A DNA stretch of 64,000 bases, from positions 62,001-126,000 of the forward strand of contig NIVC01000393.1 of NCBI GenBank assembly GCA_002269645.1. The letters are read 5' to 3'. Shown in pieces: positions 29,911 to 61,254 of this stretch. Numbering within the stretch: position 1 is the stretch's first letter; every line of letters starts with the position of its first letter. Position numbers and translations under genes: made by a program. The notes beneath the pieces are model-generated. The model saw nothing but the letters and a program-made list of their open reading frames with translations. It was not told where the DNA came from and did no database searches. The DNA is from Macrostomum lignano. Taxonomy: Eukaryota.

Positions 29911-30339
29911 GTGCTAAAATGAGTGCCTGTGGAGCTAAAAGGAGTGCCTGCGGTGCTAAAATGAGTGCCTGTGGTGCTAAAAGGAGTGCCTGTGGTGCTA
30001 AAATGAGTGACTGCGGCGCTAAAATGAGTGCCTGCGGTGCTAAAATGAGTGCCTGTGGTGCTAAAATGAGTGCCTGCGGTGCTAAAATGAGTGCCTGTGG
30101 TGCTAAAATGAGTGCCTGCGGTGCTAAAATGAGTGCCTGTGGTGCTAAAATGAGTGCCTGCGGTGCTACAATGAGTGCCTGCGGTGCTAAAATGAGTGCC
30201 TGTGGTGCTAAAATGAGTGCCTGCGGTGCTAAAATGAGTGCCTGCGGTGCTAAAATGAGTGCCTGCGGTGCTAAAATGAGTGCCTGCGGCGCTAAAATGA
30301 GTGACTGCGGCGCTAAAATGAGTGCCTGCGGCGCTAAAA
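29911..30339. repeat. 21-bp minisatellite (GCTAAAATGAGTGCCTGCGGT), ~20 copies
   Basis: Direct reading of the array. Confidence 0.96.
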
Positions 30340-41625: not shown

Positions 41626-41694
41626 TTAATAACAACAACCCTATTTTCTAACAAAATATTTTAACACTCCGTGACCTCTCTTCTCTCTCTCTCT

Positions 41695-41744
<50 letters not shown>

Positions 41745-41819
41745 TTCTCATTCTCAGGCAATATTCTCTGGCACCAGCGCTTTGAATCAAATCGCCCTAC
41801 AGTGGCTGGTGCACACAAC

Positions 41820-44362
41820 GGCGGACATGAAGACGCATTACGGCACCCAGTTCGCAGCGGCGGTGGCCAAGAAGTTGGAGCAGCTTCGACTATCCGGCCC
41901 GGTGGAGGAATTCAGAACCGGCTGGCTTGTGGGCATCCGGTGGGCCGCTAACAAGATTGGCAGAACATGGAGCCCCCGCATCGTTGACGGTGTGATGGAG
42001 CACCTGTACACCCGCGGGTTCAAGGCACTGGCTGACTGTCTGAGTGAACCGGCTACGCAGCTCCATGCCCACACCGCATTCCCAAGCGTCGACCGCTGCC
42101 CCGCCTACGTCTGGTTTGTTGGCTTCCATCATCGAGGAGGCATCGACTGGAGCTAACGCGTCGGCGGCTTCATCGGCGGCCTCGTCGGCGACTGCGCCGG
42201 CGGCTTCATCGGCGCCTCGTCGACGGCCCTGTCGGCGGCCGCGACTCCGGTGAGCAGGGAGGTGTCCCTCCCCATGACCGATTCTGTTGGTGCTACAGAG
42301 ACGGTCACTGCTGAGGTCACTGACCGCAGAGCCCCAGCCACCACCAGAAAGCGACCCGCATCGGGGTCCCTAGAGTCGACGAGCCTGGAGCAGCCACCAA
42401 AATCCGCCAGGAACTTCCCTGAGAATCTGAGAATTCCCAAAGTCATCTTCCACGATGGCTCAAAGAAGAACCGGCACCTGAGATCGAGGCAGACGCCCAC
42501 CCTGGTGATCGCGGACCAAAACGTGGAGTTCGTGAAACCCGCCTCTCGGGACTTGGATGTGCACTGCTTTCCCGGCCTCACACTGGACTATCTCAAAAAT
42601 ATCTGCAGAGTCGAGAACGAGAGCCCCGCCACGAGCCGCATCATCATTTGGGCCGGCTACAATGACCTCCACCGCCAGAGCTTCGACCTTTCCATCGCCA
42701 GGCTCAGGAAGGCGAGCTTCACCAACCTAAGGAAGGACTTCCCCAACGCGACAATCTGGGCAGTGCAGGTGGTCTGCCCCCGGACGCCTCGGCAACGGTG
42801 AGGAAAAACTGCCACAATACCAACCAGCTGCTGAGCAGTCATCGATCGGTCAGCCTCATCACGTTGGACGACATCAGAGACGGGGTTAAAGACTGCAGGA
42901 ACACTCCGAATATCAGCAAGGCGGAGGCGAGGGCCCTGCGGAGGACCGGTCGAATAGGTCCATCGTCATCAAACCGGCCGACAAGGGCAGCCAGCTGGTC
43001 ATTCTGGACCGGCAGGACTATGTCTGTGAATGCCTGCGTCAGCTATAAAGACCCGCTGTTTTATCGGCCTCTGAGCGCACCGATCAGCCGCTTCACAGCC
43101 CAGATGATCCGCGGCGTCCTCAGATCGCTGCTGGACCGAAGGATCATCGATCGGCGCCAGTTCAACGTCTTCAATCCGAAGAGCGAGTTCCGCACGCGGT
43201 GCTTCTACATCCAGCAGAGGATCTACAATGACGTCGAGTCGTAGGCGCTCGGTGACATTCCTCCGGGTCGACCCATCGTGTCTGATGTGGATAGCGAGTC
43301 CTACGCCAGCGGCCGCTTCATCGACAGCTTCCTGCAGCAGATCGTCATCAATCTGCCCAGCTTCATCGCGGACACAGACCACTTCCAGGCCGCCATCCGC
43401 GGGATCGGTTGTGCGGCGTCCGAGAAGACCTTCCGGTTCACCATGGACGTCGCCAGCCTGTACACAACATCCCGACGGAGGCCGGTCTCGAGTGTGTGCG
43501 AAGAGCGTTTAGGGAGCACCCGGACAGCCGACGCCCAGACGCCAGCCTGCTCAGCCTGCTCAAGCTGAACCTGGAGCGCAACGACTCCGAGTTTGATGGC
43601 AGATACTTCCTGCACGTGAAAGGCACTGCCATTGGGAAGTCGTTCGCGTCCAGCTACAGCAGCATCTACATGGGCTACTGGGAGAAGAGAGGCCTGGAGA
43701 CCAGCCCGCAAAAGCCCAGCCTGTGGCTCCGCTGCATTGACGACGTCTTTGGAGTGTGGCGCGGCACAGAGGCGGAGCTGGTCCAGCTCCATCAATACCG
43801 AGACGCCCTCGACCCGAACATCCGACTTCAACTGAGCCACAGCAGCACAGAGGTAAACTTCCTGGACACCACCGTCTTCTGGGACCGCGAAGGCGACAGC
43901 AAAAGCCTGGCAACCAGGGTGTATTTCAAGCCCACCGACAGCCGAGCCCTCATCCACTGCGGCTCCTTCCATCCTAAGCTGACTTTCCGGGGCGTGGTGA
44001 AGTCTTAGACCCTCAGCTACGCCCGGCGGTGCTCCCGGATGGCCGACTTCGACGCAGCGTGCACCGAGCTGATGTCGAATCTGGCGCAGCACCAAGGCTA
44101 CAGCCGGCGCTTCCTCCGCACCATCAAGTACGACGTGCTGACGGAGCTGGGCTTCTACCCGACCAGACGGTGGGAGTTTGGCTTCCTGCCGCGCAACCCA
44201 GCCCGACTCTGCAAGTGCTGCCAGGCGCACGCCCAGTTCAACATCGTTTGTCCCGGTTCGGTAGCCACCACCGTCCAGATACTCATCTATGCCGTGTTCT
44301 GCCGCCAGTGCGACCACACAGTATACGTCGGCGAGACCGCCAACAGCATCCGCGGTCGCATG
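41820..44362 (+). mobile_element. Decayed Penelope-like retroelement 2 (N-terminal domain, SGNH-like domain, RT, GIY-YIG truncated)
   Basis: KPADKGSQLVILDRQDY, PGRPIVSD, FIADTDHF, DVASLYT, GTAIGKSFASSYS, LRCIDDVF, FLDTTV, YFKPTD and CKCCQAH...IYAVFCRQC..YVGETANSIRGRM. Several stops and frameshifts. Confidence 0.9.
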
Positions 44363-45576
44363 AAAAAATTCGCATTTTTTCTCTGCTTTTTTATTGTAAG
44401 GTTTGCTAACACTGTACGGTGCAACTGCACTTTTTGCTCTGAGCTTTTACTAACTTTTTATCTTGTCTATTTTGCCTTTTAATTTTACAATTATTCTCCT
44501 ACACTTAAAGATCGTTTAGGCCCACTTGTACAGTTTTAGCCACCCCCTCCGCATTTCTCAGAGTCTCAGACTCGTTTCAATGTACTGGCCATGTGTACTG
44601 TTTTAAGCGCTTGAGCACACCCATTTATCGATCGTCCCTCCCTGGCGATATCGCCTTTATATATTGACGGTAATTCAGTTTAATGTTACCATGTTAGTTT
44701 CCGCATAGTGAACCCCCCCCTGCCAAACAGTGGCCCTCCTAATTCTAGCTGACCCCGATATCAAACTGAAATCTGCTACAAAGAAGCCCCAAAAGTTTAA
44801 GTAGCTAGTAGTAGGAGTTATGTGCACTCTGCCGCAGGAATTTCCGTGGGAAAACCACGGGCCTATAGTGTGTAAACATAGCGCCTATGTAAATGCATAG
44901 GTGGACTCTGCCGCAGGGAAAGCCATGGAAAAGCCATGGAGCCGCATCGGGCGGGCACCTATGTGGGAGAAATGTTTGTAAATCGTAGTAGGTTTTCCTG
45001 AGTTTGAAAAACTTTCACTTCCATGGCCCTCATCTCACCAAGAGTTGTCTAAACATTTGGGTGCTGACTATACAAGCATTCTATTGAAACAAAGATAAAT
45101 TCGTAGCAATTTGGCTGCGAAAAATGCGTCCTGAAGGAAATGTTCGGTATTAGTTTTGATTTTTGAATAAAAAATTCAGTGAGAGTCTTTTTAGATGGTG
45201 ACTCCGTTTGGTCAAGAGTGCCTTCGCACTTGAGTAAATTGGACTGAATTTGTTGTGAAAGTGAACTTGCAAAGCGCCGTTTATTGCTTTGTTTTTGCTG
45301 ATTTTATTGAATTTGGCGGCGGGGAAGTGGGGTGGCGGTCTTTAAAACTAATTTGTACACTGGGCGGGGGAATGTTATCAGTTTTATTGCTTTTATTGAA
45401 TAACGGCAAGAAAATAACTAGTGTATACACATATGTAACGTGTAAACATATCTCTGTGTGTGCATATTGGGCGAATTGTCTGGTGATTTGGATATAAGGA
45501 CTGAAACTTTCTACTGCCCCCATTAAAGTCAGATATTTTTAAAATTCTCCTTTTTGAATTCTGTTAAAAAACAATA

Positions 45577-47061
45577 ATGAGCAGGACACGCTGCCCATCC
45601 TTTGTGCATGAGGTTTGCACAACCTGCAATATAAGCCGACTCGGTGGGTTAAAATCGTATGAGCACACTGCTCGTGAGACCTGCAGCATCACCCGCTGGC
45701 TGATCTGCTACGAATGTAAATCCATCGAACTGTTCACGGCAAGAAACCAATCGAGAAGACATGGAAGCCACATCGTTGTAAATTGGAACTCGGCTGAGGA
45801 TCGGGAGCAAGCCCGCATCATCGCTTTGGAGGTGGCGGAGCAAGAAGAGGGATTTAGAGCTGCTGAGCGAATTCGAGAACCTGAGAGCTCACTGAGTCAG
45901 GTGATCTCAAGTTTATGTGGTCGGCCATCGATGACGATCACCGCTGAGCTGCCTGCCGCCTCCTCTGATCCTCCGCCGATCACCGCTGAGCTGCCTGCCG
46001 CCTCCTCTGATCCTCCGCTGATCACTGCTGAGCTGCCTGCCGCCTCCTCTGATCCTCCGCCGATCACTGCTGAGCTGCCTGCCGCCTCCTCTGATCCTCC
46101 GCCGATCACCGCTGAGCTGCCTGCCGCCTCCTCTGATCCTCCGCCGATCACCGCTGAGCTGCCTGCCGCCTCCTCTGATCCTCCGCCGATCACTGCTGAG
46201 CTGCCTGCCGCCTCCTCTGATCCTCCGCCGATCACCGCTGAGCTGCCTGCCGCCTCCTCTGATCCTCCGCTGATCACTGCTGAGCTGCCTGCCGCCTCCT
46301 CTGATCCTCCGCCGATCACTGCTGAGCTGCCTGCCGCCTCCTCTGATCCTCCGCCGATCACCGCTGAGCTGCCTGCCGCCTCCTCTGATCCTCCGCCGAT
46401 CACTGCTGAGCTGCCTGCCGCCTCCTCTGATCCTCCGCCGATCACTGCTGAGCTGCCTGCCGCCTCTGATCCTCCGCCGATCACTGCTGAGCTGCCTGCC
46501 GCCTCTGATCCTCCGCCGATCACTGCTGAGCTGCCTGCCGCCTCCTCTGATCCTCCGCCGATCCCTACTGAGCTGCCTGCCGCCTCCTCTGATCCTCCGC
46601 CGATCACTGCTGAGTTGCTTGCTGTCACGATGGATGAAGATGGTACTGAGCTGCCCGAATTAGATACGGCGTTCCTTGAGGAGTTTAATTTAGAATCTCA
46701 GGCCGACAACGTGACCAAAAGTTTGAGCAAACAACAACAACAACAACAACAACAACAGCAGCAGCAACGATCCGCCATCCCAGTAGCTGGAAAGAATCTT
46801 GAGCAGGCTAGGACGATGATGATGCCAGAAAACAGTATTTCTGACATTCTCCGCGAGCGGGAATCTGGCCCTGCTCAACCACCAACGATGGATGCGGAAG
46901 CAATGGCGGGGGCAACAACGGGTGAGGCTGAGACTGCTTCTTCTGGAGTGCAGCAGCAGCCTTCGTATGTGTCTATTCAACTCGTCCTTCCTAGCAGTGT
47001 TGTGGGAGAATACTGGGTTGACCTCGGGGGTAACTTTAGAATCCGGCTTAGCAACTCATAA
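45577..47061 (+). CDS. Polinton accessory protein: Cys/His-rich N-terminus, ~16 copies of a 14-aa repeat (ITAELPAASSDPPP), poly-Q
   Basis: 494-aa ATG ORF; the 42-bp in-frame repeats span ~45937-46620; TATAAG lies ~80 nt upstream. Function unknown. Confidence 0.65.
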   Translation: MSRTRCPSFVHEVCTTCNISRLGGLKSYEHTARETCSITRWLICYECKSIELFTARNQSRRHGSHIVVNWNSAEDREQARIIALEVAEQEEGFRAAERIREPESSLSQVISSLCGRPSMTITAELPAASSDPPPITAELPAASSDPPLITAELPAASSDPPPITAELPAASSDPPPITAELPAASSDPPPITAELPAASSDPPPITAELPAASSDPPPITAELPAASSDPPLITAELPAASSDPPPITAELPAASSDPPPITAELPAASSDPPPITAELPAASSDPPPITAELPAASDPPPITAELPAASDPPPITAELPAASSDPPPIPTELPAASSDPPPITAELLAVTMDEDGTELPELDTAFLEEFNLESQADNVTKSLSKQQQQQQQQQQQQRSAIPVAGKNLEQARTMMMPENSISDILRERESGPAQPPTMDAEAMAGATTGEAETASSGVQQQPSYVSIQLVLPSSVVGEYWVDLGGNFRIRLSNS

Positions 47062-48024
47062 TTTGCGTTTAATTTTACTTAATGGGTAGATTGCTAATTA
47101 GTGGTAATCATGGTAAAAGATAAATGTACAATTTTAAATGTGTACATGGTTTGTAGCGTTTAATGTGTAGAAATTAACAGCCGAAAGACTAAGATATATA
47201 TGAATTACAATATCTAGGTAGCTTATTACAAAAATCAAGAAGTGCATTGGCTATAGTTCAATTGCAGCTTTGAAACCAATTATCTGAAGCAATTACTGTT
47301 TTGAAATAGCTAATGGGATCTCTCATTATAGGGATTATGTTCTCATACACTAAAGAGGTGTGAAACGGGGCACATCCTATCTGAAATGAGCATTGTGGTC
47401 TTTCGGCTGTAAACTTATAGGGTCGTAGTACGCTCGTATGCTCTACCGTTTCTGTGTTGTTGATTGACATTTCTGGGACCCCAATAATTTTGTAGGCTAA
47501 AAGTAAATGTTAGTTGCTCTATGCGTAATTGACAATGATCTATCAAGCAATTTTGCTCAAAGCCTTTAGTGTTTCTATTTGTTGTCACTAATTTGGATAA
47601 TTCTTTCGAAATAAAAGCTCGTAATACGAGCATGTGACGGCTTTGAATGCTGATGAAGAAACATGCCAGACTTGATTTTCAATCATTTCGATCCCTACTA
47701 AATATTTGGATAAAAAATAGGGTTGAGGAGCAGTAAAAATAAATAAATAAGTCGTGTTATTCATTTACAGCTGTTTATCCCCTTTGAAACTCTCCAAGCT
47801 CAGCTAGGCGAAATTGCTTACTCAGGAGCTTTTGATTTTTATTTTGAGTTAATTCCCCAATGATTTTGAGTCTATTAATTATAAATTTAAAGACTGCTTT
47901 GCTGATTCCTAGAAAAACAATTGTTAGCATTTGTAACTACATTTCAGCATCTGATTTCCATGCAAAATCAAATAAGATTTGAGCTGACACAGCACGTCCG
48001 GCACATCGAACTGACTGCTGTCTG

Positions 48025-48106
48025 ATGGAGGATTCGGTTCGGGAACCCACAGGACAGGGCTCGCTGCTAGAGTCCACCGATTTCAGTGTCGAACCTGGGA
48101 CCAACA
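48025..48106 (+). CDS. Predicted leader exon of pPolB (27 codons plus 1 nt)
   Basis: ATG at 48025, donor a|gtgagt at 48107 and acceptor tttcctttaccag| at 48455. The phase-1 join is in frame with pPolB. Confidence 0.6.
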
Positions 48107-48455
48107 GTGAGTTAGATTCACTATATAGTTTGCGAATTCTTTGAATAATAGATTACGAATCTGAAAAATCCCCACAACCAATCAGACAGGTGATTGACTC
48201 ATTTAAATGAAACGCCATAGTTTAGTTAATCTATGAGCAACTTTCAAATTATTGGGATTCCCAAGCTCGGATCCACTGATTACCGATATGCCATGCAACT
48301 CCTGTAGCTATATGAATCATATCAAAAACGTCATGGGATTTGGTCCTTCAATAATATTTCTAATTAAAAATCAAAATTAAAAAATTAACTTTGCTCAAAA
48401 ATATTTTAATATACTTTGCTTTAATTTCTATACAATATTTTATTTCCTTTACCAG

Positions 48456-51400
48456 GAATCCCATTCCGATCTGCAATCGTATCAACGGCGCACGACAATG
48501 TCCTTCAAGTGCTGCGCTTTATTCCGACTGTGCCATGCGATCCGTTTGAATTTCTTCGTGAGGCCAAAGACGCCATTCGACAGGCACTTGAATTGCGACT
48601 CGACTCTTCTGATGGCCAGTCTGTTCGCGCACAACTCAAGCTCAACGTTCGCATGGTTAGACTCGCTGCAACAGATGTATTGCCTATTAATGCTGAAAAT
48701 AAGTACATCGCACACCACCTGGTATGCCTTAATACCATATGCGAGTTTAAGAACTGGTGGATGCAGCAATTTGCTGAGCTTGAGCGCAAAATTGACGTTT
48801 ACAATTCTAATGGCAGTGGATGGGTTGTTGATGGTCTCAATCACGTCGATCTTTGCAGTGCCCTGTCCGACCGCATTCGGTACTATTCGGGTAGATGTAG
48901 TGAATTTTCCTTGCCTATTGAGCTACGAGTACTCAACAAAAAGGCTCTCATTAATCCGCCGAGTAATGGAAATGACTGTTTCCGCTTTGCCTGTTTGGCC
49001 TATCTTCATCGTGATGATCCCACCGTGAAGAAGTCGGGCCACAGATTGTCGACTTACAAAAAGTGGGAGGCGGAAATTGATTTGACAGGTATTAATCTGC
49101 CAGTCTCAATAAGTGACCTAGAAGCGATCGAGCAGAGAAATAAAGAAATCTGTTTCACGGTTCTAACATGGGAGAATTCGGAGCCTTCAGTGATCCGCCA
49201 ACCCAGCGCACAATTGGCGACATCTCGGAAGATTGTGCTACTCATGTTGGTGCAGTCAACATTGTCTCACAGGGACTCAGAAGATGATAGTGAAGAGGAT
49301 GACGAGCAGGAAAATGATGGGATCGATTCCAACAATCTTAGCCACTGGTGTGCAGTGTCAAGCCTCGATCGGTTGTTCAACAGCAAAGGAGGTTTTCGAA
49401 ATCGAAAGTGGTGTGAACGATGCTTGAGTAATTTTCGAACCGAAAAAGATCTACAATCACACCAAGTGCATTGCAATCTCCAAGATTCGATCTCCATCAA
49501 AGAGATTATGCCTGAGCCAGAAAGTTGCTTCCTGCGCTTCAAGTCCTGGGAGAAGACACTGAGCCCTCCTTTTGTCGTCTACGCCGACTTTGAAGCACTG
49601 AACGTTCCAACTACTGCTGTAGATAATACACCATCAATCACCAAGCTAACAGAGCACGTGCCAGCTGCTGCAGGCTACATCACAATCTCCCGAGAGGGAA
49701 TTAGCCAGTTGCGTAGGCCTTGCGAGGATGTAGCTCTGTTTTGCAGTTCTGATGCACACGCATGCGTCAAGGAATTTTTGATTTCTCTGGAGCAGCTGGC
49801 TCGAAAAATTTATGACTGGAACAAGGAGTTCAGTCACAAGCCAGCCGTTAAACATGAATCAGACATTAGAAAATTTAATGAGTCTGTTTGCTGCCACTAT
49901 TGTGAAGAAAGAATTTTCTCTTCTAGTGAGAAGCACTGGGACCACGATCACTTGACTGGTGCGTTCCGTGGTGCTGCCTGCAGTTCATGCAACAAACTCG
50001 CCAGACTAAAGCGCCGCTTTCTACCAGTTGTTCTACACAACTTGCGTGGCTATGATCTGCACCTCATCTTCTCAACCGCCCTTGGGGATATGCCTGGCTG
50101 GAAAATCAGCATCATCCCGCAAGCAGCCGAGGCATACCTATCAATGCGGGTTGAGTTCAAAATCGATGAATTTGAAAAGGATGGTAAGATGAGGCCACTA
50201 AACTTCACACTTCAGTTTATCGACAGCTTGCAGTTTCTACACAGTAGCATTGCACAACTAATTGCAACTTTGCCGAAAGATGAATGCGTAGTGACAGCTC
50301 GAATGCGTGAGCATTTCCCAAACGTAAGCAATGAAGTCCTTTTTTCAAAGGGAGTATTCCCGTACGACTATCTTTCTGGTAGTCATGTACTCAGTGATAC
50401 GCAACTGCCTAGCCGAGAGCAATTTTTCAATCGATTGAACAACTGTGAATGTAGCCTAGCAGAGTATGAGCATGCTCAAAAAGCATGGCGCGAATTCGAT
50501 GCGGTTAACTTGCGTCATTATATGCTCTGCTACCTTGAGTTGGATATCCGTCAACTTGCGGATATTTTTGAGAATTTCCGCCGGCTCAGCCTCCGAGAAG
50601 ATGGACTGGATCCGGCCCATTTTGTATCAACACCTGGGCTTTCATTCGCTTCCGCCCTTAAGTCACTTTGTGGCAATGGCATTCAGCTTTTGAGCGACAA
50701 CAAAATGTATCGAACCTTTGAGAGAGGCATTCGTGGTGGCATGTGCTTTGTCAACATTCATCATGTGCAGGCAAGTATGGCTGAAAGCACTGAAGCGGCT
50801 AATCGTCAACCAACCAAAAGTTTGCTAGCAGTAGACGCAAACAATCTCTATGGCCACGCTCTCACAATGCCACTCCCAGTCAAAGGCTTCCGTTGGCTTA
50901 GTGAGGGAGAAGTTAACAGCTGGACGGAAGAGAGATTTTTGGGCTTGAATGAAAATGGACCCGTTGGTTATCTCGTTGAGGCCGACCTTTACTATCCAAC
51001 CACAATTCATGATGGTACCGCAGATCTGCCGTTCGCGCCCGAAAAACGGAAAGCCAGATTTGACGACTTTCCGCCACACATGAAGCAGCTTTGGAATGTG
51101 CTGCATCAAAAACATCGTGAACATCAGCAGCAGGAGGAGCATGAGCTTTCCGAGTTAAGTAATTGTGAAGAATATCGTGGTTCTGAGAAACTGCTCCTTA
51201 CCTGTCACAACAAAATGGCTTATGTGTTGCACTCTTCCGCGCTAAAGTTCTATCTGGCACATGGCTTGAAGCTGATCAAGGTGCACACGATGATTGAGTT
51301 CTACCAAGAGCCAGTTTTTGCCGCATATATCGCCAAGAATAGTGACAAGCGATCGAAGGCTGAAAATGAATTTGAAAAGGATTTCTATAAATTAAAGAAC

Positions 51401-52270
51401 AACAGTCTCTTTGGCAAGACAATGGAGAACGTACGCAAAAGACGAGACATTAGAATTATCAATTCTACCAACAAGGCCAGAATCTTTGCTGCCAATCCTA
51501 ATTTAAAGTCATTTACAATCATTACTGACAGCCTTAGCATATTTGAGCTACAGAAGGCTCAAGTGACTCTGGATCGACCTATTCCAATAGGGCAATGCGT
51601 ACTTGACCTATCAAAGATCGTGATGTACGAGCTGCTGTATGACAAGCTGAAGCCATTGCTGGAGCGTGATGGTGGGCGTGTTCGAGTTTGTGGCGGGGAC
51701 ACCGATTTGTTGTTTCTTTGCTTGGAAAACATTGACGTTCGGAAGGATGCCCTGCCTTTAATGATTGCCCATGATCTTCTAGACACGTCCAACTTCCCCA
51801 AGGACGATTTACTTCACTCCGATCGCTTAAAAGCAAAGCTGGGCTGCATTAAGGATGAGTCGGCTGGTGTACAAAATGAAGAGTGGATTCTGCTGCGGCC
51901 CAAGTTGTACTCATTCCTAACGAAGCAGTCATCAACTGACAAAAAGAAGGCGAAAGGCATTCAAGCGTGCGTTGTCAAGCGGAATTTGAGCCACGAAGAC
52001 TACCTGCGAGTTTACAGGGACTCAACTCAGCTATCACTTACTGTTCGCCGCATCGGTAGCATCAACCACAGATTGTTCACGCTCGAGCAACAGAAGTTGG
52101 CTCTAAGCATCTGGGAAGACAAAAGAGCCTGGATAGGACCCAACTCAAGCCTTCCTTTTGGACACTTTCGACTTTTGCAGCTACAGGAGCAGCAGCGCCT
52201 TCTAGATGAAGAATGCCAGCCGGTATGCAAACCCGATGACAGGTCAAAGCAGCGAAAGTTGCAGCTTTAG
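48456..52270 (+). CDS. polB: Protein-primed family B DNA polymerase (with terminal-protein region and EndoVII-like insert)
   Basis: Uninterrupted ORF of more than 1250 aa: NGSGW, YADFE (ExoI), CHYC...HDHLTGAFRGAACSSCN, HNLRGYD (ExoII), VDANNLYG (A), KLKNNSLFGK (B), GGDTDL (C, normally DTDS). Confidence 0.96.
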
Positions 52271-52898
52271 TTATATGACGACTGTTTTTAAGGAGCATTA
52301 GAAGTGATCGTAGCGTCAGGGTTGCTCATTATATGCGGGAATTACACAATTATTTTACAAATTATTATAATTCTAAATTAGTTATGACATTTAGCTTCAA
52401 ACGATAACTTTCTGCTTTGTGACACTGATTGCGTCTTCCATACTTAATTTGTTTTCACGACTCGTGCTACAGATAGACTGGCGTTTCAATTTGCTCAATT
52501 TTAATCATATTTTCTATTAATAAATGCAGTCGCTTTGGATCTGTTCTTTGCATTCGGTTGTGTTTTGTTTTCTGCTCACGAACTATTGCTCAGAAAAGTA
52601 AATATGCCGTTTCTTATTTTTTAGTACGTACAGTATACCAAATCATGTGCGTTGATTTTTCGCGAACTTGCTTTTTACTCTTTATTTTTAGCGTTTAGGA
52701 TTCATATCTCACCCTCTTGTAATTTTTTGTTCGTTGCTATATATTACTTTCTGCAATGATTTTATTTCCTCATGATTGATAAATAAAAGAAGAAAATTAA
52801 AAGACTCCATCTCATTGTACTTATTTTAAAATGGATTAAACAGCTTTTAGTGTCTGATATTTATTTAAATTACAGACCTTAAAGGAGAAAAACAGTTT
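52271..52898. terminator. AT-rich convergent 3' region between polB and TBP-like genes
   Basis: AATAAA occurs on the plus strand (~52519, ~52781) and the minus strand (~52682, ~52862). Confidence 0.5.
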
Positions 52899-53465
52899 TT
52901 ACAGGCGTACAATGCTGAGAAGGAGAGAAAAATCATACTGTAACATGTTCATTGACTTCGCACCACTTAAAACAAAAGAGCCGTTGTGAAAAAGTATGCA
53001 TTTACAGAATCTAAGCTTACAGATCAAAGCAGAAAATGACTCGGGTTCATACTGAGCGTTTGGGAGGGCGTTTACAAGGCTTGCGAGGGAAAGAGCAGTG
53101 CGTAAATCGATCTTTCCATGAGCAGTAATTGTTTTAATCCTCACACAAATGGATTGACGAGGCAGCAGTTGAGCAGGCACTCTGCGATGCAGCATAGCCA
53201 CGAAGCGACGAGCGGCCCTGACTGAGGCCGAGTAGCTCCGGGCGCCACAGATACTCAGTTGTCCAGTCGGATAGAGCAATAGAGTCACTCTGGGATTCCG
53301 CATCCTCTTGATGAGCACTCGGGGCCAGACGGGACGATAGATGACATGAGCCATGCTGAGAGCCAGTTCCCGCAGAGGCAACTGAGCACCCCTGCCTCCA
53401 GCCAGTCTCAGATCCACGCCGCCGACCAGATTGGTCACTCGCAGGGCTGTCGCAGGTGTACTCAT
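52899..53465 (-). CDS. TATA-binding-protein (TBP)-like protein, intronless, core only
   Basis: Two-repeat TBP pattern: VTNLV...IKRMRNPRVTLLLYPTGQLSICGARS...AARRF and YEPESFSALI...CILFHNGSFVLSGAKS, versus canonical [26 protein letters not shown] and YEPELFPGLI...LLIFVSGKVVLTGAK. Confidence 0.88.
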   Translation of the reverse strand: MSTPATALRVTNLVGGVDLRLAGGRGAQLPLRELALSMAHVIYRPVWPRVLIKRMRNPRVTLLLYPTGQLSICGARSYSASVRAARRFVAMLHRRVPAQLLPRQSICVRIKTITAHGKIDLRTALSLASLVNALPNAQYEPESFSALICKLRFCKCILFHNGSFVLSGAKSMNMLQYDFSLLLSIVRL

Positions 53466-53979
53466 TTAGAGAGTCCTTTCTGTCAGTGGTGCTGTCTTTG
53501 CGAGCTTTTGAGTGGTGCGGGCACACCTCGCTTCTTAAGTTGATACAGAACTTCGGCTTCAGCCAGTTATAGTACAGTAATACATTTTTCACTGCGCAAC
53601 CAGTATCAGATGCTTGAATCAAAGGTGATCCCAAATCCTCTAAGTTGTACACCTGTCTGCCAAGCAGCTCAGTCAGAAAGATGGACTTCTTCACCCCGCT
53701 TGTCCATGTGGGGCCGTAAGCAATGTTTAGAATGTCATTAGCCAAATGCATGTACGGTCGGGATCCATCTGTCCACTTGAAATGATGAAAATTCTTTGAG
53801 AGCTTTCTGTAATGCACCTGCATCTCAGGTGAGATTCTCTCCCATGAGAACGGAGAGGCGTACACGTGATGAGTGATATGGTAACTGCCTGCCCGGACTT
53901 GAGCAATGGCCAGCTCCTTCACAACGAAATCTCTGCTCGATCTCTCGCGTGGGAAGCCTTGGAAGTCAATATAGTTCAT
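53134..53979 (-). CDS. Putative DnaQ/DEDD-fold-like protein (first ~150 aa); C-terminal read-through over the TBP ORF is probably artefactual
   Basis: N-terminal YIDFQGF...FVVKELAI, then H..W.DG..PY, NLEDLG and CAVKNV resemble an RNase H-like exonuclease fold. The assignment is tentative. Confidence 0.5.
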   Translation of the reverse strand: MNYIDFQGFPRERSSRDFVVKELAIAQVRAGSYHITHHVYASPFSWERISPEMQVHYRKLSKNFHHFKWTDGSRPYMHLANDILNIAYGPTWTSGVKKSIFLTELLGRQVYNLEDLGSPLIQASDTGCAVKNVLLYYNWLKPKFCINLRSEVCPHHSKARKDSTTDRKDSLNEYTCDSPASDQSGRRRGSETGWRQGCSVASAGTGSQHGSCHLSSRLAPSAHQEDAESQSDSIALSDWTTEYLWRPELLGLSQGRSSLRGYAASQSACSTAASSIHLCED

Positions 53980-53991
53980 GATCGGATGGTG

Positions 53992-54714
53992 TTAAGATGC
54001 CAGATGTCGGGAAGCCGACACAGTTCCCCTTCTTAAATAGTTTTTTTTCCTGGTCAGCTGTAGCCAGGCTCTCCCACTCCCGAATCCCTTAACTATATGA
54101 TGAGCAGGGGCGGCCTGTGGAGAAACAGCAGGTTTAGAAATTAGCTGCCTTACTGACTTTCCTATAGCCGAAGCTGGGATGTAAAGCTTTTTGTCTTGAA
54201 GCAATGAGACAAACTCACTCCAGCCCACCGGCTCGCTGGCACATTTCGAATCCCTCACCGCACTGTGAAACAAATCCAGGATGTTTGAGGAGGGTATTGT
54301 CTTCCCAGAAATTTGCGCCTCGCCATTTTCGGACACCCGAATCAGAGAGGGATTGCCAGATAGGATGGCCCATAGACTGCGGGCTCTCGCTTTAAACTTC
54401 TGCGGCACGGATTGGGTGATCTTTTCCCCCCAGCTGCTTGGTGCAATATCAGTTTTCAGCATCTTGGCATCTCTCGCAGTTACCACACCATCCTTTCCAG
54501 TCCGCTTGCGCTTGGCCAGCAAATTCTTCATCGCATCATGGTACATGGCAGCTTTCACATCGTCTGGGCAATCCTCGGCAAGCAAAATATCATTGCATTT
54601 CCTCTGCGCATATCTCACAGCAGTGTCGAGTTCAGACTCAACTGGCTTCAAATTCTGTGTGAGCATATCGTATTCTGACTTGGGGATCAGAACCATTTCT
54701 GAGAACTTATTCAT
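53992..54714 (-). CDS. Conserved Polinton hypothetical protein (240 aa)
   Basis: ATG ORF overlapping the upstream gene by ATGA, in the virion-gene block. Confidence 0.7.
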   Translation of the reverse strand: MNKFSEMVLIPKSEYDMLTQNLKPVESELDTAVRYAQRKCNDILLAEDCPDDVKAAMYHDAMKNLLAKRKRTGKDGVVTARDAKMLKTDIAPSSWGEKITQSVPQKFKARARSLWAILSGNPSLIRVSENGEAQISGKTIPSSNILDLFHSAVRDSKCASEPVGWSEFVSLLQDKKLYIPASAIGKSVRQLISKPAVSPQAAPAHHIVKGFGSGRAWLQLTRKKNYLRRGTVSASRHLAS

Positions 54715-55025
54715 TTTGTTTCTTTTTCTTCACTAGCTTTATTAGAATGTAGAGAATTTTGGATAAAACCCGTATTTAGCAGATCCGCAGTTCTTCGATG
54801 TGTAGAAATTTTGCGGATTATTTGCTTTTGCTTCACCAGCGCTGCCTTTTCAGTGAGTGAGAACGACAAAGTGTTTTGCAATAGGTTGTAGCAGGCCTCA
54901 ATGAGAAATTCACGTACGGCTTTTGGACCCGCTCTGATCAACAAGCGTTTAAAGCTGATGGAATATTTTGGTGAGGCGAGAATATCAAACAAACTTTCAT
55001 GTGAGTCGAATGTTTCCATTTTCAT
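54711..55025 (-). CDS. Small Polinton hypothetical protein (104 aa)
   Basis: LIEACYNLLQN...LVKQKQIIRKI helical basic pattern, located between the ATPase and the 240-aa gene. Confidence 0.65.
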   Translation of the reverse strand: MKMETFDSHESLFDILASPKYSISFKRLLIRAGPKAVREFLIEACYNLLQNTLSFSLTEKAALVKQKQIIRKISTHRRTADLLNTGFIQNSLHSNKASEEKETK

Positions 55026-55072
55026 TAGTGTTGCAGAATATAGAACAAATGGCGAAATCTCGGCTGTTATTC

Positions 55073-55726
55073 TTAAGTGTAAAAAAGGTGGGGTCGATGA
55101 TTGGGCAGGATTCGAGCCCGGACGCGCAGCTCATCAGGGGTGGAAGGGTGAAAATCCAGGAGCAGGTAGGCTCCCCTGCCGTGCGATGTCACGTGCTTGA
55201 ACACTGACAGCAGAAAGCCGGGCTTCTCAGCAAAACACTGCCTGTCCAGCGCTGCAATCTGCAGCTGGTCTCTGGGGTTCTTCATGATCACAAAGTACAT
55301 CGCATTCAGACTCATTGTTCTCAACTCCTTCCCTTTAAAAAATACATTTTGGGTCAGCATAACCAGAAAGCAGGGCAAATGATGGGCAATTCCTGTGAAA
55401 ACATTTCGCATAGCAGCAGAATTGGAAGTTTCTTCAATCAGGTCATCAAATCCAACCAGGTCATTGGGTCTCAGTGCGGTCTCGATACTGCTGGGAAATC
55501 CCTGCTGCAGGTGCACGCCGAGACTGCTCAGCTCAGAGTGTGCTGCTTGTGAAATCCCATAGTACCACAGAACTCTCCCTGGCTTCACATCAAACATGAC
55601 ATCCCTGTACTGGATCAGATGTTTCACGAAGGTTGTCTTTCCTGCATTTGTAGGCCCGCTGACAATCATGCAGCTTCCCTGTCGCAGGCGCACATCATAA
55701 CGGTTTATCCGCTCACGCGTTTCCAT
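55073..55726 (-). CDS. A32/FtsK-family genome-packaging ATPase
   Basis: Walker A IVSGPTNAGKTT, Walker B VGFDD, and RTMSLNAMYFVIMKNPRD. Confidence 0.93.
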   Translation of the reverse strand: METRERINRYDVRLRQGSCMIVSGPTNAGKTTFVKHLIQYRDVMFDVKPGRVLWYYGISQAAHSELSSLGVHLQQGFPSSIETALRPNDLVGFDDLIEETSNSAAMRNVFTGIAHHLPCFLVMLTQNVFFKGKELRTMSLNAMYFVIMKNPRDQLQIAALDRQCFAEKPGFLLSVFKHVTSHGRGAYLLLDFHPSTPDELRVRARILPNHRPHLFYT

Positions 55727-55737
55727 CGCCTGTTGAG

Positions 55738-56277
55738 CTAAATCCTTGATTTTAAAATTCTAATTAAAATTCTTTTTCTTAAGCAACTCTCAAACCTTTG
55801 CAGAATTCTTTCATTCAAGTGGCTCTGCTGATTTGCATGGAGGTGCCGCAGAACCCACTCAAACGAGCGCTTGAAACGAAACTTTTGATAGACAAACAAG
55901 AGACAGAACAAACCGCATTTAGCAGAGTCGCAGCTCTAAATTCGATTCACATTGCTACGTAAGTAGAATGGAGAATACCAAAAGGATTTCAGTGCTCCGT
56001 GAATGATGTCTAAAGTGCTTGAGTCCCAGCCCAGAGAGTTAAAGAGTTCTATGGAATTCTCCTTATTAGCATAACAAACCACCCAGTGACCGAATCACGA
56101 GCTGTACGGAAGCAGAAAGAAAATAAACTTACATCGAGATAAATTTCTTTTGAGAGTTGCTCGCTGAATAAAGTTTAAAGCATAAGATGTTTTATTTATT
56201 GAATTCAAGACAATAATTAAACAATTATTTTGTGGCAAAAAGCTTTTAGCCAGTTTAAGCAGTTGAAAAGCATCCAT
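55738..56277 (-). pseudogene. Adenain-like (Ulp1 fold) cysteine protease with two nonsense codons
   Basis: Hand translation reads ...YSS*FGHWVVCY...ELFNSLG...NRI*SCDSAKCGLFC. Stops are at 56095-56097 and 55936-55938; the second replaces the oxyanion Gln. Confidence 0.88.
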
Positions 56278-56300
56278 ATTAGCGTTGCGCCTGCGTACTC

Positions 56301-57576
56301 CTAGGATGGAAAATCTAGCAGAATCTCCCTGTGCTTGGTGACCTCAATCAGTGAGTCATACAGGCACATAACAATCAGAGATACAGGCTCCTCCAGGGCC
56401 TGTCGGAAGCGAATCTCCAGCCGCAAATTGCCCTCCTTCTGTCCGTACCACAGGGCCGCTCCCTCAGGCGTGAGATCGAATGCGAAAGCTGTGTTGCCGT
56501 TGGAGAACAACTGGTAGGGGACCCACGGAACCGAGTTGCTAGGGCTGGCAGACTGACAGCTTTTCAGGTAGTGCAAGTACTCTCTCACGAATGAATTATT
56601 CTCAGGTGCAAATGCAGCGTGGCACATGGCTTCACCACCTTTCTTTAGTGCTAGCTGGCTGAGGTTGAAGCTCTGGAACTCGAAGGGGCTGGAATGGTGA
56701 TGGCCATTGAAGGCTCGGTGGTTCACGAAGACCAGCATAACGAACTTAGGCAGTTTGCCATGGGTGAATCCTTCAATGTTTTTTGACTGAATTCCCTGTG
56801 GTAGAATGAAGTTTTGCATTTCGGTTCGCTCGATGGGGTAAAGTGCGTTCTGATTGGTAAGTCCCTGCTCATGCGCTAGGCTGATGTGAGGCGCCACTTT
56901 GACTCGGCGCAGGTTCAGAATGCAGTGGGAGATTTCCATTCGGTAGGCTGTGTTGTTCTCATCTGGGGTTCGGATGGCAAATGCAGCATCGCTGGGCATC
57001 AGCTTGATGTGCAGGTGTAAATTGTTCAGCAGCAGAACAGGACACTGGAAGATGTCGCTGAGCAGTGGTCCCGCATACTCCACCCAGCGGGACTCCCTGT
57101 GGCTCTCGGCATGCCCCTCAGCAGCAGTTTCGGGTTCCGGCGGGGTAGAAATTTAACTGCTGAGCATCGGATGAGCTCATGAGAGCTTTTAGGTAGGCAT
57201 GGTAGGGGTAGAGCTGGTCTCCGCCTGAGACAATGCGCTGGTTGATGCTCACGATTACATCTGAGAATGCCGTAGATAGGACAAAGTTTTCTGGATGCAC
57301 CCCACTGTCTCTGCGCTCAGTGACAACTCCATCGGCATTCCGAACCTCCTCCCTCATCAAAGCCCCGCCAAGCCGGACTAGGCGACAGCGAATATACAGG
57401 AATGAGCTCAGCAGATCAGTGTACTCATCAGCCGATGGATGGCAGTCGAATTCAATAGGTGAGTTAGTAGAAATAGAGTTCACGGGGTGAATATCAACAT
57501 ACGTGGATTTTTCAATAGCAGTCTGCAGCACGGGGGACTTGAACAAATCGAGTCTCGGGTTGAATCCGTAAGCCAT
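56301..57576 (-). pseudogene. Double-jelly-roll major capsid protein, one frameshift at ~57145
   Basis: LDLFKSPVLQTAIEKSTYVDIHPVNS...YPYHAYLKAL, then GPLLSDIFQ...LPKFVMLVF...FNGHHHSSPFEF...AFDLTP...GNLRLEIRF...LIEV. Confidence 0.88.
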
Positions 57577-57578
57577 TG

Positions 57579-57995
57579 CTATGAGAGTGAGTCCAGAACA
57601 CGCTTCACAGTTTCTTTGCCCACTTTTTGGTTTCTTTTGCCTGTTTTCTTGGCCTGTGTTTTAGTCGTTCTTTTCTTAGGTTGCTTGCTTGTTCTGACCT
57701 TGCTTGTTTTGCGTGCTTCGCCACTTTTTTTCTTCTTCTTCATGCGCACCTGCTTTTTATTCACCTTTTTAGCCTGTCCTTGATTTCCTATGTTTCTATT
57801 ACTCGTACTATTGCTTCTGCTGCTACTGCTGGTTTGTACAGGCTTTGATGCTAATGATGATGATGATGTTATGGAAGGTGCTGGAGGAGGCTGGTAAGTC
57901 ATTATTCCAGGAAAACTCCCGCAGCCATAGAGCATGGACTTTTCATTTCCCGTCCGAGTCCCTGAATACTGCCGAATCAGCTGCTGATAGTTCAT
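57579..57995 (-). CDS. Basic (Lys/Arg-rich) putative core/DNA-condensing protein
   Basis: Lys-rich C-terminal half. LYGCG resembles an adenain-type cleavage site. It lies between the minor and major capsid genes. Confidence 0.6.
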   Translation of the reverse strand: MNYQQLIRQYSGTRTGNEKSMLYGCGSFPGIMTYQPPPAPSITSSSSLASKPVQTSSSSRSNSTSNRNIGNQGQAKKVNKKQVRMKKKKKSGEARKTSKVRTSKQPKKRTTKTQAKKTGKRNQKVGKETVKRVLDSLS

Positions 57996-58819
57996 TGCAT
58001 TGGTCTCTCACGTATCAGAATTGTGAGCAGAACAGGGCTGCCGCTATGAGCAGTCAGTGAGAAGCCAAAGATGTCTCGCAGTTGAACTCGAATGCTGTGT
58101 AGAAAATTTGTTTTCTGAATGGGGAAGAAAACTGTTTTCTTAAACACTTTGCTCCAGTAGCTTCCCCATCCGGCTTCAGGATTCATGTTCACAGTTCGCA
58201 GCAGGGAATTCCAGTTGCAATTAGTTGACTCCACAATGCTACAATGCACGTTGATCAGATTGGTGGGCGGGCAGCCAATGTGGTACATGGAAACTTGGCG
58301 CCCAGGTGGAATTTTCACGGACTGATTTCCGAATCCCAGCCACTGCAGAATTTTACTTGATGGAAGGAATAATTCTGCTCGAGCCGTGTTGTTGAGCACT
58401 ACCGTTCTCAATTCTTGGATCTCAAACTTTATGCCAATATCTCTAGCGCTGCTCCGCCCCATTAAACCAGACTCATCAGCCTCCATTTCAGACTCCCTCT
58501 CACTCATTGCATCGAAGAACAGTGACTCAGAGTTGGCCAGCAGCTCATTCATGCGCTCCACCAACTCCTCCACTCTAGCAAAGCGTCCGGGTTGAAGAAC
58601 CAAGGCCTCATGCTCTCTTCCATCTGAGACAGTGAAGCAGTAAGGCTCGTCAACATTGAACCATGCAGCAGGCAGATGGATTTCAGCCAGACCTGCCTCA
58701 TAGTCCACATTTCGATCCAAGTAAATAGGTGAAGGCAGGTGAAAATGAAAGTCAGCAGGAGTACCTTCAGCATTTTCGCTGTTAATGATGATGCTTCTCA
58801 TAATTGGGAATGGCTGCAC
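57992..58819 (-). CDS. Minor capsid protein (penton, single jelly roll)
   Basis: NTPADFHFHLPSPIYLD..YEAGLAEIHLPAAWFNV...INVHCSIVES...LLRTV...IRVQLRD pattern of Polinton pentons. Confidence 0.82.
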   Translation of the reverse strand: MQPFPIMRSIIINSENAEGTPADFHFHLPSPIYLDRNVDYEAGLAEIHLPAAWFNVDEPYCFTVSDGREHEALVLQPGRFARVEELVERMNELLANSESLFFDAMSERESEMEADESGLMGRSSARDIGIKFEIQELRTVVLNNTARAELFLPSSKILQWLGFGNQSVKIPPGRQVSMYHIGCPPTNLINVHCSIVESTNCNWNSLLRTVNMNPEAGWGSYWSKVFKKTVFFPIQKTNFLHSIRVQLRDIFGFSLTAHSGSPVLLTILIRERPMQ

Positions 58820-58831
58820 AATGTCGGCATC

Positions 58832-59897
58832 TTACACTTTTCTTAAGTCCTTCTCATCCACCCAGTCAGTGGAGTCGTAGCCGGCCCACTTGACCAGATA
58901 TCGGATCTTTCCCTGCCGCTTCTCAGTCTTCAAAATCTTTTCAATCACATACAGCCGCTGCGACTCCGGAACGGCCTGCAGTTCATGCTCGTGAAAAAGC
59001 CCACGAATCTCTTCTCCTTTCATGTCTTTTATCTTGTACATGTAGGGATAATGCTTTGGAGCTCTGGACACCACCGTGTACACTTCTTCGCTCCAGTTGG
59101 CCTTGTACCCTTTTCTAAAAAGCCTGGGTGCATTGGAAATCCGCACAGACTGGTTTTCGCTGAACTTTGGCTTTCCCAGCTTTTCCACAGTTTCAATCGC
59201 TTTCCCGTCATATAGGCTCATCCAGACCTCGGACTCGTTCTCCTGGCTGACATTCGTTGGGCCATTCGTATGCTTCTGTGGTAGTTTTGTTGTAGGACTT
59301 CACTAGCTTAGGCAACACATCAAGCCAATGCAGAGTGCTGTTGTGAGTGAAGTAGCGCCACATTTTGCTCTTTAAAGTTCGGTTCCATCGTTCAATGACA
59401 GCCGCCTTCTGCTCACTGTTGGTTGGGAATGCCAGGATTCCCCTTTCCATACAGCATTGGCGAAAAGTAGAGTTGATAAACTCTTTCCCCTGATCAGTGC
59501 GAACAGTGCGCGGTTGCCGCTTTGAACTTCTTAATATGCTCTCGAATGCCGACTTCACTTCAATAGAAGACTTGTTCTTTAATGCCCTCGCCCATCCGTA
59601 CTTGGACAGCACATCAATGCATGTTAGAATATACCTGTAGCCGTTATTATACTTGGAAAAAGGAATCATCTCCACCAGATCCAACTCCCATTGGTCATCA
59701 ATACTTCGAACTATGATTGGGGCCCTCGGATAATTCCTCCTTGCTGGCTTATGTAATGTGTAGACTGTCTGATCGTTAAGCCAGTTTTTCGCAGCTTTTT
59801 CACTCACTCGGATACCCTGCGTGCGAACTTCATTAATAAATTTATTGCAGCCAGAAAAGCTTGCTGGCTGCTCAGGGTTAAAGTAAATCTTTTCCAT
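58832..59897 (-). pseudogene. Retroviral-like (Polinton c-type) integrase with C-terminal chromodomain, frameshifted at ~59230-59285
   Basis: DDQWELDLVEM, CIDVLSKY, RTDQGKEF, AVIERWNRTLK; the C-terminal part has FRKGYKANWSEE and YVIEKIL...YLVKWAGY. Confidence 0.93.
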
Positions 59898-60117
59898 TTT
59901 TAATTAGAGAAAAAATTAAACTCATTTCGCATTCTTAAGTTCACCAGTAAACTAGCATAACTATAGAGAGAGATGCTTATTTTATTTTATTTTTAATTTT
60001 AAACGAGCTCATTTAATAGGACATTAATGAATAAGCTGAAAAAGCTGGATAAATAGAACTGTTAGACATCAATACAGATGGCATAGCAATGTCCACGCAT
60101 AGTCACTTAAAAAGTTA

Positions 60118-60846
60118 TCAAGCACTTTTGTCTGCGTCACCATCCTCTCCACCATTGATCACTTTGGGCAACTTGATTGCATTTTGCCTGCGCAGGGGCC
60201 ACGGAAGCTTTCGTTTGTGACAGCCGCTGTTGCCGAGCCCTGAAGCAGCACGGAACCGGTACCACAGTGGGTCGTGCGACAGGTCGCTGTCTTGCTGGGG
60301 TATGCGCCCGACTGAAGTCTCTGGCAGAACAGGCGAGCTGGTTGCATTGTCCGACTCGACGATGCGCAGCCTCTTCTCTTCTTCTTCTTCTTCTTCGCTG
60401 ACCGGCAGAGTTTCTTGGCCCTCATGCTTGATGTCCTCGGCCTCCAGCTGATACTCACTCTCCGCCGACTTCTCTCGCAGCTCGTTGTCGATCCACTCGG
60501 CCTTCTTCCAGAGTTCTCCCCATAGACGGGGAGTCAGCGCCACTGAGTTCCGCCGCAGATAATCCTCTGTACAGTCTTCCGGCAGGCGCTTCAGCCAGAT
60601 GATACCCCTGCTGACCACAACGAGTTTATCAAAGCCAAGCTTGACTGTGACGCTGTGCCGATTGACTGCCGAGTGCACAAGCTGGCGTTTCAGCTGCTTC
60701 AACTTCTCCCATTGGTATGCATTGAGGTTAAAGCCAGGGATGCCCGCTCTGAGCCCGCTTTCAGAGGAGAAGAAACGTCGGATTGCAATAAAGCGATGAC
60801 CTTCGTACTCTTGCACTTGAACTTTGAAGCCGTCACAGAGATCCAT
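60118..60846 (-). CDS. PC4/Sub1-like ssDNA-binding (transcriptional coactivator fold) protein, possibly two PC4 repeats plus acidic tail
   Basis: KVQVQEYEGHRFIAIRRFF...GIPGFNLNAYQWEKLK matches the PC4 pattern. A second degenerate unit reads KLVVVSRGIIWLK...VALTPRLWGEL. TATATATAAG lies ~75 nt upstream. Confidence 0.72.
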   Translation of the reverse strand: MDLCDGFKVQVQEYEGHRFIAIRRFFSSESGLRAGIPGFNLNAYQWEKLKQLKRQLVHSAVNRHSVTVKLGFDKLVVVSRGIIWLKRLPEDCTEDYLRRNSVALTPRLWGELWKKAEWIDNELREKSAESEYQLEAEDIKHEGQETLPVSEEEEEEEKRLRIVESDNATSSPVLPETSVGRIPQQDSDLSHDPLWYRFRAASGLGNSGCHKRKLPWPLRRQNAIKLPKVINGGEDGDADKSA

Positions 60847-61254
60847 TAATGATATGTTTCTTTAAGAAGGATGCACAAAAATTCCTTTCGTCATGAAGCC
60901 AACCTCAAAAAATCGCCCATCTTATATATACTTTCTAGGCGGAGTGGGGTGGGTGCAATAATGAGTTTCCTTCAGTACATATACCAGCATGCGCTTTGTT
61001 ATCTCACCGGGCCCCCATGCCCACCCGATGTGCCCCCCATGGAATTTCCATGGCTTTCCCTGCGGCAGAGTCGCTCAATGGATTTACATGGGCCCGTATG
61101 TTCACTCACTAGGGCCCATGGCTTTTCCACGGAAATTCCTGCGGCAGAGTTCTGTTATCCCATACTACTTATTTCCTTGCTTTGTTTGCTTCTAGGGGTC
61201 AGTTTCCGATATGTATAGTAAACATCATTTGTTTGTAAACAGGAAAGCTGGTGG

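Follow-up and report, generated by a model that had tools for sequence, protein, structure and literature searches.

Polintons have, to our knowledge, no RNA polymerase, and the literature that we searched, mostly open-access, holds no account of how they time the expression of their capsid genes. Nor did these searches (listings and abstracts, mostly open-access) return an analysis of a Polinton TATA-binding protein (TBP) or late box. For vertebrate Mavericks the end motif is given as AGTAGT/ACTACT, and TBP is not among the eight core genes in the available part of that account (PMC8097293). The legend to Fig. 5 of PMC8502044 uses the label 'TBP' for an unnamed MELD virus, without an analysis in the portion of the text available. 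Thus, a Polinton TBP is not wholly without precedent. The one file of the Starrett supplement does not mention TBP, TATA or Macrostomum, and 10.1101/2023.08.22.554363, 10.64898/2026.06.19.733378 and PMC11161782 contain no mention of TBP, TATA or promoters.

Viral TBPs are described in two other settings, both cited here from partial texts. The beta/gammaherpesvirus TBP mimic, ORF24 of KSHV, has several domains; it makes direct contact with Pol II within a six-protein viral complex and reads TATTWAA (PMC12529657). Most viral TBPs vary at two C-lobe glutamates, named as TFIIB/Brf contacts, and come with their own TFIIB (PMC7221094).

A TBP-like gene inside a Macrostomum Polinton

The window, the whole 64,000-nucleotide stretch of contig NIVC01000393.1 of Macrostomum lignano that we analysed, contains a 16.4-kb Polinton (44807-61169) bounded by inverted repeats with AGTAGT/ACTACT ends. 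Repeat comparison places the left terminal inverted repeat, which starts AGTAGT, at 44807-44957 on the plus strand; the right one (61017-61169, minus strand) matches it imperfectly, at 82-86% in the two best blocks. A protein-primed PolB, a retroviral-type integrase, a double-jelly-roll major capsid protein (MCP, recognized through its relative P0228) and (AGT)2//(ACT)2 repeat ends identify the element as a Polinton. The 6-bp target-site duplication of Polintons is absent from the ends of this mosaic copy, where the flanks differ.

On the plus strand are ORF494 (45577-47061), with a 42-bp tandem repeat and TATAAG upstream, and the polymerase gene pPolB (48653-52270; PF03175, E 8e-19), which converges with the TBP-like gene. 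The minus strand holds a block that runs from the integrase (INT) through ORF269, ORF138, MCP, protease, ATPase, ORF104 and ORF240 to ORF281 and the TBP-like gene. INT (58832-59897) carries a chromo domain (rve E 6e-13, Chromo E 8e-6). ORF269 (57992-58801) is a putative minor capsid protein by synteny only, with no Pfam match, and the Lys-rich ORF138 (57579-57995) occupies the Maverick pw position, again by synteny only. The MCP (56301-57576) is 74-78% identical to P0228, whose model matches the double-jelly-roll capsids of PBCV-1 and mavirus. The putative protease (55741-56277) and packaging ATPase (55073-55726) are assigned from synteny and, in the ATPase, a visible Walker A motif; the Pfam P-loop matches of the ATPase and the Peptidase_C48 match of the family-2 protease counterpart (E 0.0085; family 2 is described below) are below cut-off. 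ORF104 (54711-55025) and ORF240 (53992-54714) sit, by synteny only, at the Maverick pm and pz positions. ORF281 (53134-53979) has a conserved N-terminal domain of ~170 aa, and its C-terminal 110 codons overlap lobe 1 of the TBP-like gene in another frame; it has no Pfam match, and an Atlas lead to Maelstrom reached 0.88 only.

A PC4-like gene (coactivator/ssDNA-binding domain; PF02229, E 8e-5, below cut-off) lies at 60118-60846 on the minus strand. It is preceded by the canonical-type TATA run TATATATAAG (60921-60930, minus strand), a candidate early promoter. Family 2 has the gene too (L071:7909-8601), there on the other side of TBP; its product is a second candidate transcription or ssDNA-binding factor.

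The TBP-like gene (52899-53465, minus strand) is an intact, intronless ORF of 188 aa without an N-terminal extension. PF00352 matches two TBP stretches in the protein (E 3.7e-23), and a PDB sequence search returned TBP matches from E 1.5e-17. An AlphaFold2 model built from an 11-row alignment reached pLDDT 82 and pTM 0.71 (the remaining four models, 59-65) and superimposes on the human TBP core with TM 0.81 and rmsd 2.4; it resembles nucleocytovirus TBPs too, but less well. These results bear out the two-repeat TBP core that had been read from the sequence in an earlier note on this DNA. The same note placed the gene well inside the terminal repeats, and it does lie ~8 kb from either end. That it is packed into the virion-gene block is right as to block and strand, but it is the last gene, facing the 3' end of pPolB, and not among the capsid genes. 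Shortly past its stop is an AATAAA (52860-52865, minus strand), probably the common poly(A) signal of the block. A 359-aa database protein, P0010, joins the N-terminus of ORF281 to most of the TBP-like protein; a frameshift in that copy or an error of the gene model may account for it.

The earlier note also set the intact TBP ORF against broken neighbours. In the window this is so: INT and MCP are each split over two frames, and two in-frame stops interrupt the protease. However, contigs from short reads of other runs (three presumed to be RNA and one unlabelled), which cover genic and intergenic DNA alike, show small indels relative to the window within INT and MCP, so part of this breakage may be copy- or assembly-specific and the contrast is weak evidence when taken alone. 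We rejected it as proof of selection and used dN/dS in its place.

Several other repeats surround the element. Directly to its left (40400-44500) are broken reverse-transcriptase and GIY-YIG pieces (the latter below the Pfam cut-off), which we take to resemble Penelope-like elements. Long inverted repeats up to 27 kb apart (1567-29421 and 16244-32712) consist of 23-bp satellite arrays and enclose a reverse-transcriptase fragment at 14938-15918, and a 54-bp satellite runs from 61256 to the end of the window.

Copies, ancestry and DNA-facing residues of the TBP-like protein

The closest named relatives are M. lignano proteins, at 78% and 96%. The genome holds at least 152 matches to the TBP-like protein (150 of 230 candidates scored), and 94 of the 150 listed cover residues 8-176 or more without a stop. 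ORF281 is upstream in all 39 fetched loci with a whole ORF, and 36 show the end of pPolB downstream. In a second family (L071, L081, L083) the TBP-like protein is 35-37% identical to that of family 1 and its gene has the same position behind ORF281; among 151 matches, 42 are at 70-100% identity, and 20 are near full length without a stop. These genomic copies leave out three further family-1 subfamilies, and control families were seen in part. Pairwise dN/dS was 0.09-0.31 for codons 1-110 (28 of 28 pairs) and 0.07-0.31 for codons 111-184 (22 of 28 pairs; five were saturated and one identical) among eight representatives of 21 distinct TBP-like coding sequences. Values this far below 1, the shared synteny and the many near full-length copies confirm that the TBP-like gene is a selected core gene of these Polintons, probably a long-resident one, and, with the fold, the view that the element encodes a divergent TBP of its own is upheld.

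The converse view, that the gene is a recent and neutral retrocopy of host TBP in one insertion, could appeal to the lack of introns, a trait that the host TBP core shares. It is refuted by the copy number, by dN/dS and by the same position in a second family; the protein is also just 29% identical to host TBP. Phylogeny adds to this. In a tree of 43 sequences chosen by hand from the matches, including six viral-contig TBPs and two TRF2 sequences, the seven element-type sequences formed one long-branch clade (100/98), and a clade with host TBP was rejected (p-AU 0.004). We regard this explanation as virtually dead. None of the three refuting outcomes named in the earlier note (no TBP fold, a host retrocopy confined to this insertion, dN/dS near 1) was observed. 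A forced clade with TRF2 was not rejected (p-AU 0.13), and the free tree shows no TRF2 grouping, with two TRF2 sequences only. The element-type clade does not group with the six viral-contig TBPs either. Long branches may bias these tests. If the gene was captured, as the note proposed, its donor is by the AU test not of the host's own TBP lineage, and a TRF2 origin is not rejected. Host TBP (L031-L036) and a TRF2-like gene (L037-L042) have three occurrences each in the assembly, with intronless cores.

Among 1.84 billion representatives, only five score under 1e-30 with the profile of the TBP-like family, and P0013 (JGI) and P0018 (ENA) extend the element-type clade to short unnamed contigs. 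Scans of viral contigs (A2, P0013) and metagenomes (A3, P0175) returned no locus, and the alignment A4 of short TBPs yielded 16 loci, in which TBP was the only gene of the window Polinton to find a match. Many unnamed, core-only TBP-like proteins of 166-200 aa (P0036, P0038, P0052, P0110, P0145, P0161-P0187) occur on contigs from metagenomes and runs, up to 18.8 kb long, and form a clade apart from cellular TBP and from the Polinton family. They could be TBPs of other Polinton-like elements or viruses. At least two more pPolB-carrying families occur in the genome (L073:3-1461 and L072); in L073 there is what we take to be an ATPase behind a short gene and a dUTPase-like tail.

Comparison of the window with L003, L022, L046, L047 and L052 shows the copies to be mosaics whose crossover zone lies near codons 100-120 of the TBP-like gene. 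Members of a group are 92-100% alike in lobe 1 and in the genes upstream, whereas lobe 2 and pPolB fall to 55-65% amino-acid identity or to saturated synonymous identity. The pPolB and virion modules are therefore swapped through the TBP-like gene. The stretch of ORF281 that overlaps the TBP-like gene, in another frame, measures 329-332 nt at 32 of 39 loci; in the rest ORF281 is broken upstream. Synonymous codons that would make a stop in the overlap are never used (0 of 13-18 in each copy, compared with 4-8 of 12-16 for lobe 2; 0/12 against 4/13 in family 2; window 53134-53465, L001-L054, L071, L076, L077 and L083). The overlap therefore seems to be kept open in both families, and its sequence is not specially conserved. 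As a speculation, the overlap could keep ribosomes that have translated ORF281 from initiating again at the ATG of TBP.

Residues were assigned from 13 element-type sequences aligned with L031, the genome's own host TBP (29% identical); lobe 1 aligned without gaps. The earlier note had listed aromatic residues (W, Y, F, F) at all four DNA-intercalating positions, and here the alignment disagrees. The first intercalating phenylalanine is replaced by Pro48 in 13 of 13 sequences, and Trp47, a His in family 2, aligns to the preceding Arg position. The set is thus P48, Y65, F144 and F159 in place of the four canonical phenylalanines, and for this reason we speak of a TBP-like protein rather than a canonical TBP. 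The reading of the paired minor-groove asparagines was correct: N12 is kept and its lobe-2 partner is T112, in 13 of 13 sequences.

Relative to TBP the changes are F99 to P, F116 to Y, A100 to R, V122 to S/T, T124 to C, N159 to T and P191 to S/T/N, in a yeast numbering that we presume for some of the DNA-face positions. The equivalents of F99, A100, V122, T124 and N159 are altered alike in both families, and that of Pro191 is S, T or N in all 13 element sequences. V203 corresponds to an invariant Lys by strand register, a manual reading of a strand that the automatic alignment gaps, and the C-lobe hairpin is two residues shorter than in cellular TBP. Thus, the DNA face is changed yet nearly invariant across subfamilies and partly so across families. 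The partner surfaces differ in how well they are kept. The TFIIB/Brf-contact glutamates E140 and E142 are present in 13 of 13 sequences. Of the N-lobe basic patch (TFIIA/TAF1/Mot1/Brf1), R86/R87 are present in most family-1 sequences and lost in family 2, with a helix register that varies between alignments. The equivalents of N91, E93 and R141 on the TFIIA/TAF side show no clear retention, and the helix register there is uncertain.

A box shared by genes of the virion block

Seven of the minus-strand starts in the window are preceded by a copy of TTAAGAA, at 41-73 nt in six of 11 cases and at 148 nt in the seventh. The octamer CTTAAGAA lies 74 nt before the TBP-like start, inside ORF281 (53532-53539), and TTAAGAA is present there in 39 of 39 family-1 loci. 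By motif count, the same octamer occurs 52 nt before ORF104 (55070-55077), 57 nt before the ATPase (55776-55783), 46 nt before ORF269 (58840-58847) and, in non-coding DNA, 42 nt before INT (59932-59939), and TTTAAGAA lies 58 nt before ORF281 (54030-54037) and 149 nt before ORF138 (58137-58144). The MCP of the window has only the variant CTAAGAA, 102 nt upstream; these boxes are all on the minus strand.

TTAAGAA is the best 7-mer in six of 11 upstream windows, which none of 2000 random window sets reached after correction for the choice of the best word. Within the virion block there are eight sense copies and no antisense copy. Five copies fall in coding sequence, against 0.9 expected under synonymous resampling (0/400). 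The count over the whole window is at chance (17 against 18.6), so significance belongs to position and strand within the block only, and the terminal repeats are without TTAAGAA. Family 2 gave an independent result: ATAAGAA occurs in five of nine windows (0/2000), at homologous places that include the non-coding DNA before INT. The boxes of family 2, where no 8-mer reached significance (p 0.08), are often TATAAGAA, a near-canonical sequence.

Taking both families together, xWTAAGAA is found on the coding strand upstream of 44 of 59 virion-block starts in nine loci. As these loci are related, the 59 starts are not independent trials; only the two families are. The box precedes TBP in 7/8 cases, ORF281 in 9/9, ORF104 in 7/7, the ATPase in 5/5, the MCP in 4/5, ORF138 in 4/4, ORF269 in 4/4 and INT in 4/5, and it is absent upstream of ORF240 (0/8) and the protease (0/4), which lack it in the window too. 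Nearly all boxes (45/46) are at least 35 nt before the ATG, as for a -30 element, and 29 of 46 start with C. The box is kept before INT in both families, in non-coding DNA that can no longer be aligned; some boxes lie in coding sequence, where at least one (at the end of INT) may be held by the protein. In the window, PC4 and ORF494 are preceded by ordinary TATA-type boxes; in family 2, this holds for pPolB and the TBP gene. In a control pPolB family (L072; 9.9 kb seen, no TBP match) the box stood before one of eight starts, without strand bias.

Work on TBP specificity, available to us in part, offers a way to relate the box to the altered residues (PMC1636458). The C-lobe reads the TATA box's 5' half, Pro191 forbids bases other than T at position 1, and changes at I194, V203 and L205 shift specificity at position 2. 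The S/T/N at the Pro191 position would fit the frequent C at the start of the box. Similarly, the shared N-lobe changes (F99P, A100R, F116Y, V122S/T, T124C) would read the shared G at position 6, an argument that is weakened because wild-type TBP itself has room for a G there; swaps of A and T also have little effect on it (PMC1636458). For the same reason host TBP itself might read TATAAGAA or TTTAAGAA.

Possible roles and comparison with known systems

We propose that the TBP-like protein is a TBP of altered specificity that hands host Pol II to the late promoters of the element, and we give this reading a probability of about 0.6. The early genes (PC4-like, ORF494 and, in family 2, pPolB and the TBP gene) would be served by host TBP at their ordinary TATA boxes. 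The element TBP would then bind xWTAAGAA in the minor groove, in preference to TATAAAAG, and recruit host TFIIB through the kept glutamates of its YEPE motif, so that host Pol II would start ~30 nt downstream of the box. The integrase, capsid and packaging genes would be switched on as nested transcripts that end at the poly(A) signal past the TBP-like stop. Positive feedback would follow in family 1, where the TBP gene itself has a late box. The earlier note had suggested that the protein redirects host Pol II with altered specificity. The conserved non-canonical box, the retention of both TFIIB glutamates and the remodelled DNA face back this suggestion indirectly, and it stays an inference. 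On the other hand, loss of an intercalating phenylalanine and of the second asparagine could weaken DNA binding.

The same observations can be arranged differently. The box may be a weak TATA element read by host TBP/TFIID or another host factor, with the element TBP as a helper or repressor that silences or shields promoters from Mot1/NC2. The lost phenylalanine, the near-canonical family-2 boxes and the room of wild-type TBP for G at position 6 are in keeping with this, but the host Pro191 is said to forbid the C with which most boxes start, and early-type genes keep ordinary TATA boxes, so that two box classes exist. We consider this account improbable, if worth keeping in mind. It is less probable still that the protein is, as the note also suggested, a dominant-negative decoy, which would soak up host TFIIB or Brf1 through its glutamates and dampen host transcription without serving element promoters. 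Invariant TFIIB-contact glutamates next to many altered DNA-face residues are what a decoy would show; yet the altered face is itself nearly invariant, as one would expect if it had a specific ligand. Moreover, the element depends on host Pol II, and the box is left unexplained.

Two further accounts separate the box from the TBP-like protein, and we think both very unlikely. If the box were the initiator at which a nuclear helper virus's RNA polymerase starts, much as virophage promoters follow those of the giant virus, the protein would have some other task. TTAAG/ATAAG does contain TAAG, the late start motif of baculoviruses (PMC9786725, available in part), but the conserved core is longer (TAAGAA) and an initiator has no need of the 35-nt floor before the ATG. 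We know of no helper of the baculovirus or nudivirus type in this host. Alternatively, the TBP fold may bend DNA in replication, recombination or packaging, at the termini or where pPolB meets the virion block, while another element protein, such as ORF281 or the PC4-like protein, would use the box. Copies do recombine within the TBP-like gene, with exchange of the pPolB and virion modules, and TBP folds occur in viral proteins of several functions; such a role would not need the TFIIB glutamates, the box is TATA-like in sequence and spacing, and the terminal repeats are without TTAAGAA. We rejected a self-contained TBP-TFIIB system of the NCLDV type, because the 24 ORFs scanned with Pfam include no TFIIB or RNA polymerase and the genome has no multicopy TFIIB: its 15 TFIIB-domain matches are all low copy (23 of 23 candidates scored).

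We return to the altered-specificity TBP. In a broader form, a single captured and naturally re-specified TBP would read its own box, plug into host TFIIB and Pol II, and so set up an early-to-late cascade in a branch of animal Polintons. Together with the many short, unnamed TBP-like proteins of metagenomes, this may point to a common but overlooked Polinton module whose TBP and box evolve together. We see an even chance that this is so. If true, it would be the smallest known viral late-transcription system, and it would imply helper-independent expression of virion genes from integrated copies. A self-encoded TBP with a matching box could also mark Polintons that still behave as viruses, and a natural TBP with shifted specificity and the host TFIIB surface kept would be of interest for TBP structure-function studies and orthogonal promoter design.

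With cellular TBP and TRF2 (TBPL1; PF00352) the protein shares the two-lobe saddle, N12, V14, F144 and F159 of the C-lobe and the YEPE glutamates; it differs from cellular TBP as a minimal core of low identity (~29% to host TBP) in its own long-branch clade. As a Polinton, the element shares pPolB, rve integrase, double-jelly-roll MCP, terminal motif and size with Polintons, Mavericks and adintoviruses (PMC8097293, PMC8502044, available in part) and the gene order int-mcp-pw-Mcp-pro, atp-pm-pz with Mavericks (PMC8097293, available in part), whereas the TBP-like, PC4-like and ORF281 genes are additions, and this copy has no target-site duplication.

If our preferred reading holds, the likeness to KSHV ORF24 (PMC12529657, partial text), a comparison by fold only, would lie in a viral TBP fold, a non-canonical box shared by late genes and the use of host Pol II. 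The box here would be analogous but of different sequence, and the Polinton protein is a bare 188-aa core with TFIIB glutamates, lacking the extra N- and C-terminal domains and partner activators of the herpesvirus protein. A divergent, virus-encoded TBP is also common to the TBP-TFIIB pairs of nucleocytoviruses; most of these viruses have TFIIB and RNA polymerase genes of their own and their TBP glutamates vary, whereas the Polinton keeps them (PMC7221094, as far as available). Against these systems, our results suggest a large flatworm Polinton family that carries its own altered TBP and a matching, candidate late-gene box, and what is new is the xWTAAGAA box before most genes of the block.
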